Source: a virus
Taxonomy: Duplodnaviria > Heunggongvirae > Uroviricota > Caudoviricetes
Direction: 5' to 3' (one strand)
Length of the DNA: 24,800 nt
Virus record (IMG/VR): IMGVR_UViG_2872192773_000009
The position numbers and the translations under genes are program-made. This document shows, in pieces, positions 10,639 to 17,133 of this stretch. A model generated the notes under the pieces. It was given only the letters and a program-made list of their open reading frames with translations, did no database searches and was not told where the DNA came from. The first letter of the stretch is position 1. Each line of letters starts with the position of its first letter.

Positions 10639-10681
10639 TGAGGTGTACTGGCAATAGCGGACACTACCATTTATTCTTTTT

Positions 10682-11500
10682 TTAAGCAGCCATCTGATGA
10701 TATTTTTCCCTGAAGGCTGCCGGGGAGATATTCCCCAGACGAGAGTGACGACGCTGACGATTGTAGAAAATCTCAATGTATTCCCGTATTACTGAGATGG
10801 CTTCATCCCGGTTATTAAAACGATAGTGGCTCAGGCTCTCATTTTTCAGCGTTCCCCAGAAGCTTTCCATCGGAGCGTTGTCGTAACAGTTACCTTTACG
10901 CGACATTGATGTTTTCAGACCAGACTGCTCCTGTATGACCCGGTAATCGTATGCGCAGTACTGTGAACCTCGATCAGAGTGGTGGATTAGCCCGGCAGGT
11001 GGGCGCTGGCTCCTGAGCGCCATAAACAGGGCTTTACCTGTCAGCTCTTTTGTCATGCGCTCTCCCATGGCGTAGCCGACAATTTCGCACGTATAAACAT
11101 CTTTGATGCCAGCGAGGTACAACCATCCCTCCTGTGTGGCAACATACGTCAGGTCCGCCACCCAGACCTGATTTGGTGCTGTAGGAGCGAACGTCTGGTT
11201 CAGCAGATTTGGCGCAACTGGCAGATTGTGGTTCGGGTTCGTAGTCGCTCTGAACTTGCGTTTCTGCTTACAGCGTAGCCTCAGCTCCTTACGAAGACAT
11301 GCCAGTCGGTCACGACCAACGATGATGCCATTCTCTGCCAGCTCCGTCTGGAGCCGCCGGGTTCCATATGTTTCGCGAGTGCGGATATGTGCCACCTTAA
11401 TCTCCAGTTTTAGCCGCTCATCACTTTGTTTTCTGTCTGAGGGTTCATGCTGTACCCAGTTGTAATAACCGCTCCTGGATACACCAAATACCTGACACAT
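10682..11500 (-). CDS. IS600 OrfB transposase
   Basis: 272-aa IS3-family DDE transposase frame (…HHSDRGSQYCAYDYR…NCYDNAPMESFWGTLK…), the IS600 sequence as I recognise it. Confidence 0.85.
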   Translation of the reverse strand: MCQVFGVSRSGYYNWVQHEPSDRKQSDERLKLEIKVAHIRTRETYGTRRLQTELAENGIIVGRDRLACLRKELRLRCKQKRKFRATTNPNHNLPVAPNLLNQTFAPTAPNQVWVADLTYVATQEGWLYLAGIKDVYTCEIVGYAMGERMTKELTGKALFMALRSQRPPAGLIHHSDRGSQYCAYDYRVIQEQSGLKTSMSRKGNCYDNAPMESFWGTLKNESLSHYRFNNRDEAISVIREYIEIFYNRQRRHSRLGNISPAAFREKYHQMAA

Positions 11501-11535
11501 CGCTTCAATGGGAAATTGTTGTCGCCATTGTTCGA

Positions 11536-11838
11536 TTAACGCGTATTTTTCAGCGACTCCTGTGCAAAATACGCTGTTGCTTTTTTTAATATATCTCGCT
11601 CAAGGCGAGCTTCATTTAACGCCTTACGCAGTTGCAGAATTTCAGATTCCAGTTCAGCCACCGTGCGGGAACCAGGAGTACCGAGCCCTTTTCTGGCGGC
11701 GGTAACCCATTGTCCTAAAGTGCCTTCAGGAAGAGATAATCGGGAAGCGCCTTCACTGATCGAAAGTTGATTTTCAAGAACCGTTCTGACAGCTTCGGCT
11801 TTGAACTCTTTAGAGTAACGTTGGGTTTTTCTGCTCAT
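11536..11838 (-). CDS. IS600 OrfA (helix-turn-helix / leucine-zipper transposase N-terminal protein)
   Basis: 100 aa MSRKTQRYSKEFKAEAVRTVLENQLSISEGASRLSLPEGTLGQWV..., typical IS3-family OrfA. Confidence 0.85.
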   Translation of the reverse strand: MSRKTQRYSKEFKAEAVRTVLENQLSISEGASRLSLPEGTLGQWVTAARKGLGTPGSRTVAELESEILQLRKALNEARLERDILKKATAYFAQESLKNTR

Positions 11839-11902
11839 TATTAGCTCCTTCTGATGCCATTCTATTTCAGGAAGGAGTGTCCGTTAAACTCAGGCTACCT
11901 CA

Positions 11903-12649: not shown

Positions 12650-13031
12650 GGCATTCACCCCGTCGTCGCGCTGTACGCAGTTCTTCACATTCCAGTAATA
12701 AAAAACGCCGCTGACCGTTCAGGTCACGTATTCGCCGGATCCGGTACTCTTGGCCGTAATAAACCACTTCGTGATCTGCCGTGATGTCGTGCCGGAAACG
12801 GATCGTAAAATAATGCGTAACGATATTTTCTGTCTGCACTGAGCCCTGATAAGCGGCAGCGCCTGGCTGAGCCACCTTTGCCCAGACATCAAACGACTCC
12901 GGATACGTTGGCTCCGTACCAAAATCAGCGGTGGGTTCATCCACACGAAGGCGGATCTTTATCCGGCGATTCAGCTCTCCGGGATCCGGTAAAAGGTAAG
13001 TGGCACTGGTCTGACTTTGCCTGATTTTCAT
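12615..13031 (-). CDS. Phage head-tail adaptor / head closure protein
   Basis: 138 aa from the ATG at 13031. Pattern ...RRIKIRLRV...YYGQEYRIRRIRDLNGQRRFLLLECEE resembles the head-tail joining family as I recall it. ATG overlaps the stop of the upstream connector gene. Confidence 0.55.
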   Translation of the reverse strand: MKIRQSQTSATYLLPDPGELNRRIKIRLRVDEPTADFGTEPTYPESFDVWAKVAQPGAAAYQGSVQTENIVTHYFTIRFRHDITADHEVVYYGQEYRIRRIRDLNGQRRFLLLECEELRTARRRGECHESDSIFTRRL

Positions 13032-13351
13032 AGCGGGACAATCCTGTAAGGGCCAGCAAGCCATCTGAAACTCATTGGCGTTTCCAGTTTCTCCACATCG
13101 GTAATCGTTGAGCGATTTTCATAAAAATGACTGACCAGCATCAGCATTGCCAGACGAACGTCATCAGTCAGATGCATCCCGTCAGGATCATCTTCCGGAA
13201 TCGTCTCTTCCGGTGCATACAACTTCCTGTTCAGGTATGTCTCTGTTTTTTTCTGTACCGCCTGTGCCAGCAGTTTCAGAAAATCGCCGTCACTGTACAA
13301 ACCATCATCGAGCCGGAGATGAGATTTAATCTCCTCTTCTTTCAGGAGCAT
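13028..13351 (-). CDS. Phage gp6-like head-tail connector protein
   Basis: 107 aa MLLKEEEIKSHLRLDDGLYSDGDFLKLLAQAVQ..., resembling the gp6-like connector family. AGGAGG ribosome-binding site upstream. Confidence 0.55.
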   Translation of the reverse strand: MLLKEEEIKSHLRLDDGLYSDGDFLKLLAQAVQKKTETYLNRKLYAPEETIPEDDPDGMHLTDDVRLAMLMLVSHFYENRSTITDVEKLETPMSFRWLAGPYRIVPL

Positions 13352-13441
13352 ATTTTCCTCCTGTGCCCGCGATTACGCGGGCACAAAAAACCGCATTACG
13401 CAGCGGCTTTCTGGCGGGTTGCAGCCCCAATTTTCATCAGC

Positions 13442-14317
13442 TTAATCGCCTGAGAATCCACCAGCATACCGCCGGTTCGCTTGGTGGTATAAAAACCCAC
13501 GAACGGTGTCATCTGCGTGCACCTTTCCTGCCTCCAGAACATAGTCATTCAGCGCTATATACAGAGGACGGAGTTTGTCTGCCATTTCTGATACCCAGCG
13601 CACCATGGTATTACGGCTCAGCTCCACGCCCTGTCGCGCGTATATTTCTGACTGGCGATATAAAGGGATATGTTCCATATATTTGCTGACCAGGATCCGT
13701 GCAAGTAACCCTGCACTGGCATAACCGCGTTCGATCGGTTTAGGAGGAAGTGGTGCCTGAACGATGACATCACACCGGCTACAGGCCAGTTTGGGACGTA
13801 TGGTTTCGATAACTTTAAAGGCGGTATTAATGATATCCAGTTGCTCTGAGATTGTTTCCCCCATTTCTTTCAGAACACCTCCACAGGCCGGGCAACTGGT
13901 TTCAGCAGGCAGAAGGCGATGTGTCTCCCGGGGAAGTTCTGCCGGCAGCGGTTTTCGTGAAGATTTTCGTCCCGGGAATTCAGGCTTACTGGCGATCGGG
14001 TTTTCTGACGGGGGACTGGTGTCAGGTGAATCTGTGACTGACGATGCATCTTCCAGAAGATTTCTGGCTGTGTTCAGCCGGTTTTCCAGTTCCGACAGTC
14101 GTTTTTCTGCCTGTCGGATCTGATTTTCAAGCTTATGACGCTTTTTCTCTGAACTCTGGCCGAACAACATACGACGCAACCTGTCGAGTTGCGCTTTCAG
14201 CCGTTCAATTTCCTGCTCATAGCCCGCGACCTGACAGGCATACTGTCGAAGCCGACTCTGTTGCTTACGCAACATGGCTTTAAGCAGCTCAATATCATCG
14301 GGGAGTTCATTGTTCAT
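13442..14317 (-). CDS. IS66-family transposase TnpC, 3'-truncated (ends just after the first catalytic HADDT)
   Basis: N-terminal coiled-coil and zinc-finger region (CPACGG...CSRCD) and ...GKVHADDT as in IS66 TnpC, then an unrelated tail and stop. Full TnpC is about 520 aa; 291 aa here. Confidence 0.7.
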   Translation of the reverse strand: MNNELPDDIELLKAMLRKQQSRLRQYACQVAGYEQEIERLKAQLDRLRRMLFGQSSEKKRHKLENQIRQAEKRLSELENRLNTARNLLEDASSVTDSPDTSPPSENPIASKPEFPGRKSSRKPLPAELPRETHRLLPAETSCPACGGVLKEMGETISEQLDIINTAFKVIETIRPKLACSRCDVIVQAPLPPKPIERGYASAGLLARILVSKYMEHIPLYRQSEIYARQGVELSRNTMVRWVSEMADKLRPLYIALNDYVLEAGKVHADDTVRGFLYHQANRRYAGGFSGD

Positions 14318-14664
14318 TCCCTTGTTTTATCACGGGTTATATCCGGATGCCAGGCCGTTCTGTCCGTTTGGGATGTTGCCACGCGATCCCCTCCAGTAGC
14401 ATGGATAACTGAGCTGGCGTCAGGTGCACTTTCCCTTCCCGGGTCACCGGCCAGACGTTTGGCGAACAGGCATAACCCGTCACGATCGGCCCACAGTATT
14501 TTCACCATTTTGCCACTGCGGCCCCGGAAGACGAAGATATGCCCGGAGAACGGGTCATCTTTCAGCGTGTTCTGCACCTTCGAAGCCAGGCCATTGAAGC
14601 CACAACGCATATCTGTGATGCCAGCGATGATCCAGATTTTGGTACCGGTCGGCAGCGTTATCAT
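14314..14664 (-). CDS. IS66-family TnpB (Orf2)
   Basis: 116 aa MITLPTGTKIWIIAGITDMRCGFNGLA..., the canonical IS66 Orf2 as I recognise it. Confidence 0.8.
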   Translation of the reverse strand: MITLPTGTKIWIIAGITDMRCGFNGLASKVQNTLKDDPFSGHIFVFRGRSGKMVKILWADRDGLCLFAKRLAGDPGRESAPDASSVIHATGGDRVATSQTDRTAWHPDITRDKTRE

Positions 14665-15335
14665 CGGATACCCCCTTTCATTTCGCGGATTAGCGCCCGT
14701 AACAGTTCCGGAGTGAGAGGGTCAAACAGTTTTACCACACCTGATTTAAGATGCAGCTCGCACCGTGGGACGTTTCCGGGAGCCCCCTCAGGGCGCTCAT
14801 CATGCTTGTTACGCCAGAAGGGATTTGTAACTGGTCTGGTCGGCTCCGGCGTATCAGTCAGTGCCACCGGGACAGGCATGCATTCCTGTATGTCATCATC
14901 GCTCAGTAAGCCGTCCTCGTACTGGCTTTTCCATTTAAACAGCAGGTTATCATTGATATCGTGTTCTCTGGCGATCCGGGCAACAACAGCCCCAGGCTGT
15001 AACGCCTGCTTAGCCAGACGGACCTTAAATTCACGGCTATAGCTGGTTCGCCGTTCTTTTCGCCATGAGCCTTCTCTGATTTGAGGCTCTGTTAATTCCT
15101 TCTTTCTGTTGGCATAAAGGATGGCGTCAAGTTGAGCGAATGAAACTGAATCGGGCAATGGCCATGCGATACCGGATGCAAGAAATCGCTGAAAAAGCGT
15201 ATGTATTGTGGAATGACTGAGACCCAGACGCTGAGCGATGGCCCGGATGGTCAGTTTATCTTCAAATCTTAAACGCAGGGCATCAGGCAAATAAGAACGG
15301 AAGCAGGGAATATCTTTTGTTGTCTGGGAATTCAT
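14661..15335 (-). CDS. IS66-family TnpA (Orf1, helix-turn-helix protein)
   Basis: 224-aa ORF with a helix-turn-helix segment (LTIRAIAQRLGLSHSTIHTLFQRF), immediately upstream of and overlapping tnpB. Confidence 0.65.
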   Translation of the reverse strand: MNSQTTKDIPCFRSYLPDALRLRFEDKLTIRAIAQRLGLSHSTIHTLFQRFLASGIAWPLPDSVSFAQLDAILYANRKKELTEPQIREGSWRKERRTSYSREFKVRLAKQALQPGAVVARIAREHDINDNLLFKWKSQYEDGLLSDDDIQECMPVPVALTDTPEPTRPVTNPFWRNKHDERPEGAPGNVPRCELHLKSGVVKLFDPLTPELLRALIREMKGGIR

Positions 15336-15417
15336 CGTTCGTGTCCATCAATATAGATGGGCGCGATTGTTGCCAGACAGGACAATTTTCACAAGACGTC
15401 GCTGATGGGGCGCTTAC

Positions 15418-15434
15418 CGTAATGATGGCGACAT
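15418..15434 (-). pseudogene. Stub of a signal-anchor-release (SAR) endolysin gene (first 5 codons, MSPSL plus R), disrupted by the IS66-family element
   Basis: ATG overlaps the holin stop (TAATG). Encoded MSPSLR resembles the N-terminus of phage-21 R21 endolysin (MPPSLRK) as I recall it. The frame is interrupted by the IS end within codon 6. Confidence 0.45.
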
Positions 15435-15649
15435 TATTCACCTCTCGCAGCCTTACGCTTGTCTTCTCTGATTTTGAAGTACAGATTTGTCAGATAAGTC
15501 AGGAAGCCCAGAACCAGACTCCCCAGTACACCAATCGCAGCCCACTGTGACGGACTGACCTGATCAAGCCACTGTAAAAACCAGTAGCCAGCACTGCCTG
15601 CGGAGGTGCCGTAGGCAATGCCCGTTGAAATTTTGTCCATGGATTTCAT
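15434..15649 (-). CDS. Phage holin, S21-like class II pinholin
   Basis: 71 aa [71 protein letters not shown]; two transmembrane segments. Matches the phage-21 S / DLP12 EssD family as I recall it. Confidence 0.8.
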
Positions 15650-15941: not shown

Positions 15942-16016
<75 letters not shown>

Positions 16017-16019
16017 ATA

Positions 16020-16095
<76 letters not shown>

Positions 16096-16097
16096 AC

Positions 16098-16174
16098 TGG
16101 ACCGCCACCGGGGACTCGAACCTCGCACACTCAACTTAAAGGGTTGACGCTCTTTCCTGATGAGCTAGTGGCGG
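16098..16174 (-). tRNA. tRNA-like gene, nominal anticodon UUU (Lys) with atypical C33; possibly degenerate
   Basis: 77 nt CCGCCACTAGCTCATCAGGAAAGAGCGTCAACCCTTTAAGTTGAGTGTGCGAGGTTCGAGTCCCCGGTGGCGGTCCA. Perfect acceptor (C1-G72), D and anticodon stems; TTCGAGT T-loop; anticodon loop CCUUUAA; A.C mismatch in the T-stem. Confidence 0.45.
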
Positions 16175-16175
16175 T

Positions 16176-16251
16176 TGGTGGCCCTTGCTGGATTTGAACC
16201 AGCGACCTGGCGATTATGAGTCGCTCGCTCTCACCACTGAGCTAAAGGGCC
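16176..16251 (-). tRNA. tRNA with CAU anticodon, ileX/ileZ-like (tRNA-Ile2, or elongator Met)
   Basis: 76 nt GGCCCTTTAGCTCAGTGGTGAGAGCGAGCGACTCATAATCGCCAGGTCGCTGGTTCAAATCCAGCAAGGGCCACCA; close to E. coli ileX as I recall it. Confidence 0.7.
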
Positions 16252-16432: not shown

Positions 16433-16461
16433 AATATATGCCTTTCAATCTACTTTTGCAA
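16433..16461 (-). promoter_or_regulatory. pR'-like sigma-70 late promoter (-35 TTGCAA, 17-bp spacer, -10 TATATT) overlapping the end of the Q-like gene
   Basis: Read from the minus strand: ttgcaa aagtagattgaaaggca tatatt; position matches lambdoid late promoters just after Q. Confidence 0.45.
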
Positions 16462-17133
16462 CACTTTGCTTTGAAAATGCCGTCTTTTTTTTGAACGTGT
16501 TCTCATTACAAACAATAAAGCCTCACTATCCAGTCGGTGAAAAATGTGTTTCATTGCAACCCAGTGACGAGTAAATGTTTTGGACCAGTTTTTAGTTGTC
16601 ACTCCCGCCAGTAATGCCAGCTCCTGGTATTCATAACCTTCCCCACCAAAAAGTTCTGCTTTTACTGCCTGCGCCGCCAGCCAGATTAATTTTTTCAGGC
16701 GTTCCTGCGTTTTCCCTGCAATTTTTCTGGTACCGGATTGAGCATTAAATTCATTCCACGCCCACTGTGTTATCGCGATCTGATATTCCCAACAAATACT
16801 CCCGCTGTAACACCACAACAACCAGGCTTTATAGTGCTCTTCAAGAGACAGAACAGCCCGCCGCCACGATGATGTCGAAAACTCAACCGGACTGACCAGA
16901 GGAATTGACGTCCCCTTCGCCAGCGATTGCTTTCCCGGGATTGGTGGATTATCCCGCGTTATCATTTTTCCAGTCACTTCATCGCGGTACCGGATTTTTT
17001 TACGCCTGTAACGCCCTGTATCGAACATGGCATTCTCTTGCCAGGCTTCAAGCTGACCTTTTGTTGCCCCACTCAAATCAGCGGTGGCGATAATGAGCTG
17101 CTCACGCACAAACTGTAAATACTGGTTATTCAT
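16450..17133 (-). CDS. Putative late-gene antiterminator (Q-like; same position as Qin ydfT/quuQ)
   Basis: 227 aa from the ATG at 17133, which overlaps the rusA stop (ATGA). Assigned mainly by position: directly upstream of the late promoter, terminator, tRNAs and holin, and downstream of rusA. No sequence-level recognition claimed. Confidence 0.45.
   Translation of the reverse strand: MNNQYLQFVREQLIIATADLSGATKGQLEAWQENAMFDTGRYRRKKIRYRDEVTGKMITRDNPPIPGKQSLAKGTSIPLVSPVEFSTSSWRRAVLSLEEHYKAWLLWCYSGSICWEYQIAITQWAWNEFNAQSGTRKIAGKTQERLKKLIWLAAQAVKAELFGGEGYEYQELALLAGVTTKNWSKTFTRHWVAMKHIFHRLDSEALLFVMRTRSKKRRHFQSKVLQK

Follow-up and report, generated by a model that had tools for sequence, protein, structure and literature searches.

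Lysis cassettes of the P21 and DLP12 type are composed of a holin (S21/EssD), an endolysin (R21/RrrD) and Rz. ISSfl3 is an insertion sequence (IS) of the IS66 family, annotated by NCBI PGAP in Escherichia coli, enteroinvasive E. coli (EIEC) and Shigella, with the gene order tnpA-tnpB-tnpC and a GTAAGCG terminus. phiP27 is an Stx2e phage with colinear head-tail and tail genes. The locus described here combines parts related to all of these. It lies in a window of 24,800 nt, i.e., the whole stretch of viral DNA analysed (IMG/VR record IMGVR_UViG_2872192773_000009), which carries a decayed, phiP27-like, ipaH-carrying prophage of Shigella flexneri next to tRNA-Ser(cga). An ISSfl3 fragment in this prophage follows the first codons of the endolysin gene and is joined on its other side to the last codons of the capsid gene.

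Members of another family, IS3, have been described to leave the chromosome together with neighbouring DNA. When IS629 or IS3 is excised, DNA next to it is deleted as well, from a few nt up to more than 40 kb, in a process that depends on the transposase and is enhanced by the IS-excision enhancer (IEE), as stated in PMC9943667 (citing Kusumoto 2011). IS3 and adjacent sequence were also deleted in experiments with endpoint homology of 6 bp or less, and rarely also without IEE (Kanai et al., 2022, PMC8860574). A strand switch during copy-out replication at microhomologies of 2-4 bp has been proposed as a model (bioRxiv 10.1101/2023.06.07.543989). The loss of lysis, packaging and head genes from the window is explained with good confidence by an event linked to a member of this family, namely, an IS600-linked deletion of 8,852 bp in a decayed S. 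flexneri prophage.

Positions below are those of the window; the lysis and head genes of the prophage are on the minus strand and are read that way. From the holin to the connector, the features are as follows.

15434..15649, minus strand: holin, intact, P21-S-type class II, 71 aa (PF04971, E=1.4e-35, full-length match)
15418..15434, minus strand: endolysin stub, 17 nt, five codons and 2 nt (ATG TCG CCA TCA TTA CG)
13506..15417, minus strand: ISSfl3 (IS66 family) remnant, own nt 1-1932 of 2,754 (megablast and alignment to a full copy)
14661..15335, minus strand: ISSfl3 tnpA, 224 aa, apparently intact (PF01527, E=9e-24)
14314..14664, minus strand: ISSfl3 tnpB, frameshifted (PF05717, only profile positions 2-66 of 101)
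13442..14317, minus strand: truncated tnpC, chimeric open reading frame (ORF) of 291 aa (PF13007, LZ_Tnp_IS66; PF13005, zf-IS66; part of PF03050)
13506..13507, minus strand: deletion junction with the 2-bp microhomology AC (three-way alignments)
13396..13507, minus strand: 3' remnant of an HK97-type major capsid gene, last 36 codons and stop (tblastn, PF05065)
13352..13395, minus strand: capsid-connector spacer of 44 nt, including the connector ribosome-binding site AGGAGG (colinear with phiP27 and the FDAARGOS_944 prophage)
13028..13351, minus strand: gp6-like head-tail connector, 107 aa, ATG at 13351 (PF05135, E=1.7e-9)

Relatives were gathered by looking up proteins of the window in public assemblies, and the loci obtained (given L numbers) belong to S. 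flexneri-type chromosomes with the prophage in varied states of decay. CP026871.1, covered by the overlapping loci L024 and L013, shows the order holin, endolysin stub, ISSfl3 nt 1-1934, IS600 (1,264 bp), ISSfl3 nt 1932-2754, TCATTACG and the rest of the endolysin, followed by Rz-like, HNH, small terminase subunit (TerS), large terminase subunit (TerL), a 60-aa ORF, portal, a protease-capsid fusion and connector. The IS600 nested in tnpC has a 3-bp duplication, CTC (ISSfl3 nt 1932-1934), and the surrounding ISSfl3 carries the same 20-bp deletion in tnpB as the window. Because ISSfl3 is complete in this genome, with its target duplicated and the rest of the endolysin directly behind it, its insertion was a simple one, with an 8-bp duplication, that removed no DNA. 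The window matches CP026871.1 up to ISSfl3 nt 1932, and the match resumes in the 3' part of the capsid gene. The 8,852 bp deleted in between have four components.

2 nt: ISSfl3 flank (TC)
1,264 nt: IS600
823 nt: 3' part of ISSfl3
6,763 nt: phage DNA

The phage DNA lost comprises the endolysin from codon 6, Rz-like, HNH, TerS, TerL, the 60-aa ORF, portal and the protease-capsid gene to codon 372 of the capsid part. The microhomology AC is common to ISSfl3 nt 1931-1932 and the capsid gene, and because of these 2 bp the left breakpoint is ambiguous over three positions (ISSfl3 nt 1930, 1931 or 1932), which lie 2-4 nt outside the left end of IS600. The right breakpoint lies 7.6 kb past the right end of IS600. 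Since the break in tnpC falls 2-4 nt from the left end of the nested IS600, the deletion is linked to IS600 and not to ISSfl3. The initial annotation, made from the sequence alone, had seen an IS-mediated deletion with the IS66 element at its edge; the involvement of an IS is retained, but the element concerned belongs to the IS3 family. Its suggestion that the truncation point be defined by IS comparison and the deletion sized against a relative yielded the break at nt 1932 of 2,754 (against an annotated full copy) and the 8,852 bp given above.

An uninterrupted arrangement is found in the FDAARGOS_944 prophage (L006), which is 99.7-100% identical to the window in the common parts and has no ISSfl3. 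Its order is Q, tRNAs, holin, rrrD, lysis protein, HNH, TerS, TerL, small ORF, portal, protease, capsid and connector, with tail genes beyond the connector and ipaH at the far end, so that the missing genes are kept there in a row; the segment 7780-15998 of this locus is absent from the window. Searches with the missing genes (blastn, tblastn) found no remnants of endolysin, Rz, HNH, terminase, portal or protease in the 24.8-kb window. Compared with close relatives, in which these genes are still present at the locus, the loss is a genuine deletion. phiP27 27246-28852 corresponds to window 13507-11903 and phiP27 28848-33563 to window 10640-5919, with 96.7-97.5% nt identity; the structural module is colinear and similar, of the kind with an HK97-type head and a contractile tail, and its head and packaging part is missing from the window. 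The window shares its Q-tRNA-holin region and an ipaH gene at the far end with the FDAARGOS_944 prophage, whereas phiP27 differs in its early and lysis modules and has stx2e in place of ipaH. In contrast to both, the window is without 6.8-6.9 kb from endolysin to capsid and without ~8.2 kb of baseplate and tail-fibre genes, and it carries ISSfl3, two IS600 copies and an IS1.

The arrangement itself has been sequenced before. Over 20,876 bp, the window has 100% identity to LR213452.1, which is S. flexneri AUSMDU00008355 (PMC9376355), and the exact 291-aa chimeric tnpC product was found in five NCBI contigs. Among complete E. coli genomes (megablast), none had the whole arrangement and no record covered 80% or more of the query. 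The tnpC/capsid junction, searched as an exact 34-mer, had no match in a collection of species-representative genomes and none in metagenome contigs; a 28-mer of the endolysin/ISSfl3 junction matched two genomes.

Whether the ancestor of the window carried the nested IS600 was read from the other relatives. The left junction of IS600, ...GATGACACTC/TGAGGTAGCC, is present in L026, L027 and L030 as well as in L024, and L011, L022 and L028 have the same junction with one extra T. The window, L023-L027, L030 and L031 have the 20-bp deletion in tnpB, which makes a useful lineage marker, and L011, L022 and L028 are without it. Since it is absent from these three IS600-bearing loci and present in the window, the IS600 insertion is, by parsimony, older than the 20-bp deletion, and the window lineage passed through an IS600-bearing stage. 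The 8.85-kb deletion arose once, in a single clade, because a single-nucleotide polymorphism (SNP) of the phage backbone, T at 17192, unites all five deletion-bearing genomes (LR213452, CP130061, CP055132, CP097837 and CP026776); the outgroup and four genomes that still have IS600 carry C at this position. An independent recurrence of the deletion had been suggested by SNP 14463 in tnpB, common to one deletion-bearing and one pre-deletion genome. It was rejected in view of the backbone SNP and of the position of the conflicting SNPs, all of which lie inside ISSfl3 and are likely due to gene conversion among IS copies.

The proposed series of events has four steps. First, ISSfl3 inserted into endolysin codon 6, as a simple insertion with the 8-bp duplication TCATTACG seen in relatives. 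Second, IS600 (IS3 family) entered tnpC of ISSfl3 at its nt 1932-1934, with the 3-bp duplication CTC. Third, a slippage deletion of 20 bp frameshifted tnpB. Fourth, 8,852 bp would have been lost from one clade in a single deletion, by which tnpC became joined to the last 36 codons of the capsid gene at the 2-bp microhomology. The first three steps and the extent of the fourth can be read from the alignments, whereas we infer from the position of the breakpoint that the fourth was started by IS600 transposase activity, which we regard as moderately likely.

In transposition of the IS911 type, the target of the first strand transfer is on the same strand, 3 nt beyond the opposite end of the IS, where the flank is left with a 3'-OH. 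For the left end of IS600, this point falls between ISSfl3 nt 1931 and 1932, inside the range over which the breakpoint is ambiguous. The junction may thus, tentatively, be regarded as the footprint of an aberrant transposition intermediate of the IS3 family. As an IS600 circle forms, a nick would be made in the flank 3 nt from the left end, and the free 3' end would be joined 8.85 kb downstream at 1-2 nt of homology. Misjoined in this way, without the IS being copied again, it would remove IS600 and the lysis, packaging and head genes in one step. The event resembles the deletions described for IS629 and IS3 with IEE in that an IS3-family element present at the ancestral breakpoint was lost with a one-sided flank (here 7.6 kb), the other breakpoint lies at the IS end (here within 2-4 nt) and the microhomology is very short. 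It differs from them in being a natural, historical event reconstructed by comparison and in its host, which is S. flexneri and not enterohaemorrhagic E. coli (EHEC) or laboratory E. coli. No report of an IS-excision enhancer in Shigella was found in the IS-excision literature searched.

Several points weigh against a start by the IS600 transposase. The breakpoint position is the one observation that points to it, and this position is ambiguous over three nucleotides; the microhomology is just 2 bp. An intermediate with the order ISSfl3 nt 1-1934, IS600 and CGTTCGTGGG... (capsid 3' end) was absent among the loci examined, and the event may have taken a single step or two, i.e., an adjacent deletion followed by loss of the IS. 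In addition, the SNPs in ISSfl3 are homoplastic and point to gene conversion, so the parsimony argument from the 20-bp deletion is slightly weakened.

A possible cryptic right end of IS600 at the distal breakpoint was also considered. CCCGTACACC matches the right inverted repeat, CCAGTACACC-TCA, at 9 of 10 positions and is located at 23884-23893 of the CP026871.1 composite, on the deleted side, 7 nt before the distal breakpoint. An equally high score is reached by around 4% of background windows, and the distance to the break does not fit, being off by 4 nt; the match is therefore probably due to chance.

The main rival to an IS600-linked deletion is spontaneous illegitimate recombination, by slippage or by repair of a random break at the 2-bp microhomology, with the proximity of IS600 being a coincidence. 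Illegitimate deletions are common in decaying prophages. The minimal microhomology and the absence of an IS at the junction agree with such an origin, and a deletion may end next to IS600 by chance, a further point against the part given to IS600. The coincidence needed, an endpoint that falls within ~4 nt somewhere in a stretch of 2-10 kb, was roughly estimated at about 1 in 1,000 (1 in 500 to 1 in 2,000). Moreover, the whole of IS600 is in the deleted segment, which fits the documented deletions of IS3-family elements with their flanks, and we therefore consider the rival unlikely.

It is very improbable that the transposase of ISSfl3, acting from its own end, removed the neighbouring phage DNA. 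An IS66-family element does stand at one edge of the missing region; however, an adjacent deletion made by a transposase keeps the IS ends, and here the distal 822 nt with the right inverted repeat are gone. The insertion in CP026871.1 is complete, its 8-bp duplication is present and the endolysin resumes behind it, and the break coincides with the nested IS600 and not with an ISSfl3 end. With the end of ISSfl3 itself deleted and its insertion intact in a relative, ISSfl3 is excluded as the agent.

Homologous recombination between IS copies (IS600 with IS600 or ISSfl3 with ISSfl3) deserves hardly any credence for the window, although it did occur in sister lineages (L011, L022, L028, L027 and L008). 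The nested IS600 (copy A) recombined with an IS600 in the tail terminator gene (copy B) in L011, L022 and L028, where ISSfl3 nt 1-1934 and IS600 adjoin the C-terminal part of the tail terminator. Similarly, the nested copy recombined with an IS600 near ipaH in L027, in which IS600 adjoins the ipaH side, and the tail genes between two IS600 copies are gone from L008. L026 and L030 have an additional IS1 in tnpC, and L023 and L031 have IS1-flanked inversions. An IS copy was kept at every junction of these sister-lineage rearrangements, and recombination would likewise have left one copy in the window, where tnpC is joined directly to the capsid gene with neither IS600 nor a second ISSfl3; it is excluded because there is no IS at the junction. 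Just as little weight is given to a rearrangement that moved the lysis and head genes elsewhere in the genome, e.g., by IS-mediated inversion or translocation like the IS1-flanked inversions at the same locus in L023 and L031, as the genes could not be traced in the window, an inversion would have had no IS at the junction for its resolution, and a look-up of the connector protein in the 28 longest contigs found it at one place in LR213452.1 (L016).

On the lysis side, the intact holin matches PF04971 over its full length and its region is 98% identical in nt to that of phi467 "Lysis protein S". The last A of its stop TAA (15436-15434) is shared with the endolysin ATG (15434-15432), giving TAATG, and the endolysin start likewise overlaps the holin stop in phi467 and the FDAARGOS_944 prophage. 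Read onward, the stub encodes MSPSLR, followed by a TAA stop contributed by the IS end. This overlap and the adjoining IS terminus had been described in the initial annotation and are read directly from the sequence. The base right after the stub is the G of GTAAGCGCCCC, an IS66-family terminal inverted repeat, and in phi467 and the FDAARGOS_944 prophage a lysozyme gene, rrrD (MPPSLRKAV...), runs on from the position of the stub. For this reason, the insertion is placed after the second base of endolysin codon 6. The ISSfl3 match at 13506-15417 and the rrrD continuation in relatives bear out the earlier placement of an IS66-family element in codon 6. The stub is probably of P21 type, judging from relatives that are 98-99.7% identical and whose gene is rrrD (PF00959). 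Compared with a P21- or DLP12-type cassette, the window is left with an orphan holin, 17 nt of the endolysin and no Rz.

The assignment to ISSfl3 was made by megablast against complete E. coli genomes, in which the matching records are annotated "IS66-like element ISSfl3 family". The reference for alignment was the complete 2,754-bp copy at L005 2657-5410 (annotated "ISSfl3 family"), from which the remnant differs by nine mismatches in 1,912 nt (99.5% identity) and one 20-bp gap. The left inverted repeat GTAAGCGCCCC is at 15417. Inverted repeats beginning GTAAGCG are found at both ends of the full copies in L005 and L024, and in the window at the left end only. Of the 8-bp target duplication, one copy of TCATTACG survives at 15425-15418; both copies flank the same insertion in CP026871.1, and the 8-bp duplication is as in annotated ISSfl3. 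tnpA, tnpB and tnpC are consecutive on the minus strand, in the order of the family, though tnpB is frameshifted and tnpC truncated. The tnpA product is equal in length to the annotated TnpA WP_046881738.1. The frameshift in tnpB is caused by the 20-bp deletion (own nt 963-982, between window positions 14455 and 14456), which is located between the short repeats ACG/CCTGG ... TCG/TCTGG and had not been mentioned in the earlier reading.

The tnpC ORF consists of 270 codons and 2 nt of ISSfl3 (to 13506), and it continues past the break for 20 codons, out of frame through the capsid remnant, before a stop. TnpC is thus cut at residue 271 of 533, and only positions 2-76 of 284 of the DDE_Tnp_IS66 profile (PF03050) remain, the first quarter of the domain. 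The truncation had been placed just after HADDT, and the break was found inside the Thr codon of this motif. With its last 822 nt and right inverted repeat missing, a frameshift in tnpB and a TnpC that has lost most of its DDE domain, the ISSfl3 of the window is a dead, immobile fragment of an IS66 member and not a complete element.

The sequence that follows the break had been taken for the ribosome-binding site and start of the connector gene. Instead, it consists of the 36 capsid codons with their stop and the 44-nt spacer, after which the connector begins. The capsid remnant is 100% identical to aa 373-408 of the capsid of the FDAARGOS_944 prophage (tblastn), covers PF05065 profile positions 253-280 of 280 and is 97.5% identical to the 3' end of the phiP27 gene L40. 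The claim that everything up to the connector genes is lost therefore holds for the rest of the endolysin, Rz, HNH, both terminase subunits, portal, protease and most of the capsid gene, but the deletion ends inside the latter, of which 110 nt remain. The connector is the first intact gene beyond the deletion, and its counterpart in the FDAARGOS_944 prophage is annotated "head-tail connector protein".

Two hairpins were found around the spacer: a small terminator-like one over the capsid stop (13404-13390), followed by T6, and a perfect, GC-rich stem-loop of 9 bp, GTGCCCGCG-TAAT-CGCGGGCAC (13384-13363), directly upstream of the connector ribosome-binding site. They may serve as an attenuator or an mRNA-stabilising element. 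A classical terminator between capsid and connector was considered and rejected, as only a weak terminator-like hairpin was predicted, and the six sites obtained, against 3.4±1.3 expected, are within chance.

The prophage was already damaged before the 8.85-kb deletion. Lysis was blocked by the ISSfl3 insertion itself and not first by the deletion, to which the earlier reading had ascribed a block of both lysis and packaging. Shigella copies of the prophage lack 161 bp over the 3' end of the protease and the 5' end of the capsid gene (L006 14845-15005), which produces a fused protease-capsid ORF of 576 aa (L013 4226-5956, also in L012, L015 and L021). Because of this fusion, the head module was probably already defective. 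A second IS600 in the window splits the tail terminator gene, and this insertion is also present in CP026871.1. The ancestor of the window very probably shared both the tail terminator IS600 and the 161-bp deletion, and the 8.85-kb deletion very probably hit a phage that was already defective. Since lesions of lysis, tail terminator and head are all seen in the pre-deletion CP026871.1, the deletion is a further step of decay.

Other features of the window, including the upstream region and the cargo, are as follows.

327-995, plus strand: methyltransferase, 222 aa, cargo
1311-2954, plus strand: IpaH-type type III secretion system effector, 547 aa, intact, with leucine-rich repeats and NEL E3 ligase domain (PF14496, E=6e-77)
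10639..11902, minus strand: IS600 copy B, 1,264 bp, with a 3-bp duplication CAT (99.5% identity to annotated IS600)
15942-16251, minus strand: four phage-borne tRNA genes (Met/CAT, Lys, Thr, Gly) between Q and holin
16450-17193, minus strand: Q antiterminator gene (PF06323)
19002-19214, minus strand: hok/gef-type toxin gene of the early region (PF01848, gene calls on the identical locus L007)
20392-21432: prophage integrase, 346 aa, ending 28 nt from tRNA-Ser(cga)
21460-21549: tRNA-Ser(cga)
21604-22440: mtfA-like Peptidase_M90
22541-22616: tRNA-Asn
23291-24040: second, shorter integrase gene
24147-24800: another IS3-family transposase ORF

IS600 copy B leaves a 77-aa N-terminal part (12128-11895) and a 118-aa C-terminal part (10654-10298) of the tail terminator. 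A second deletion was observed at 3611-5281, where ~8.2 kb of DNA-circularisation, baseplate and tail-fibre genes (L006 24262-32418) are gone and a truncated IS600 (3611-4513) adjoins a complete IS1 of 768 bp (4514-5281); unlike the ISSfl3 junction, its edges are IS termini. The ipaH and methyltransferase cargo is located past a tail-fibre remnant (DUF4376, 3748-3134), and the ipaH homologue of the FDAARGOS_944 prophage is annotated ipaHe and frameshifted. The tRNA-Ser(cga) gene is likely the attachment site of the prophage. The CAT-anticodon tRNA may be a lysidine-type tRNA-Ile2, as its counterpart in the FDAARGOS_944 prophage is annotated tRNA-Ile.

The components of the locus are known already, including ISSfl3, IS600, IS1, phiP27-like prophages, P21-type cassettes, chromosomal ipaH in prophage remnants and the IS decay of Shigella. 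That IS turn genes of Shigella into pseudogenes and that its prophages decay is textbook knowledge; the type of event is likewise known, this being ordinary prophage decay at a locus found in public, annotated S. flexneri genomes, and the practical value is small. For annotation, the region should be described as an ISSfl3 fragment, an orphan holin and a capsid stub, and not as a functional IS or lysis cassette. Its only mildly notable aspect is that natural intermediates, in a clean series, tie the deletion to a nested IS600 that the window has lost. The sequenced relatives provide a worked example of a simple IS insertion, a nested IS, alternative recombinations between IS copies and the loss of a nested IS with its flank, and they caution that an IS seen at the edge of a deletion may not be its cause.

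The decay has left an immobile IS fragment, an orphan holin and a set of tail genes that lacks its head and packaging counterparts. The prophage is predicted to be unable to lyse the cell or package its DNA, and its ipaH cargo would thereby be fixed in the chromosome. If the junction is indeed the footprint of a transposition intermediate, it would add evidence from the field, in Shigella, to the strand-switch or excision-with-deletion models, whose support has so far come from experiments with EHEC and plasmids, and IS600 would be an active agent in locking ipaH-carrying prophages into the chromosome.

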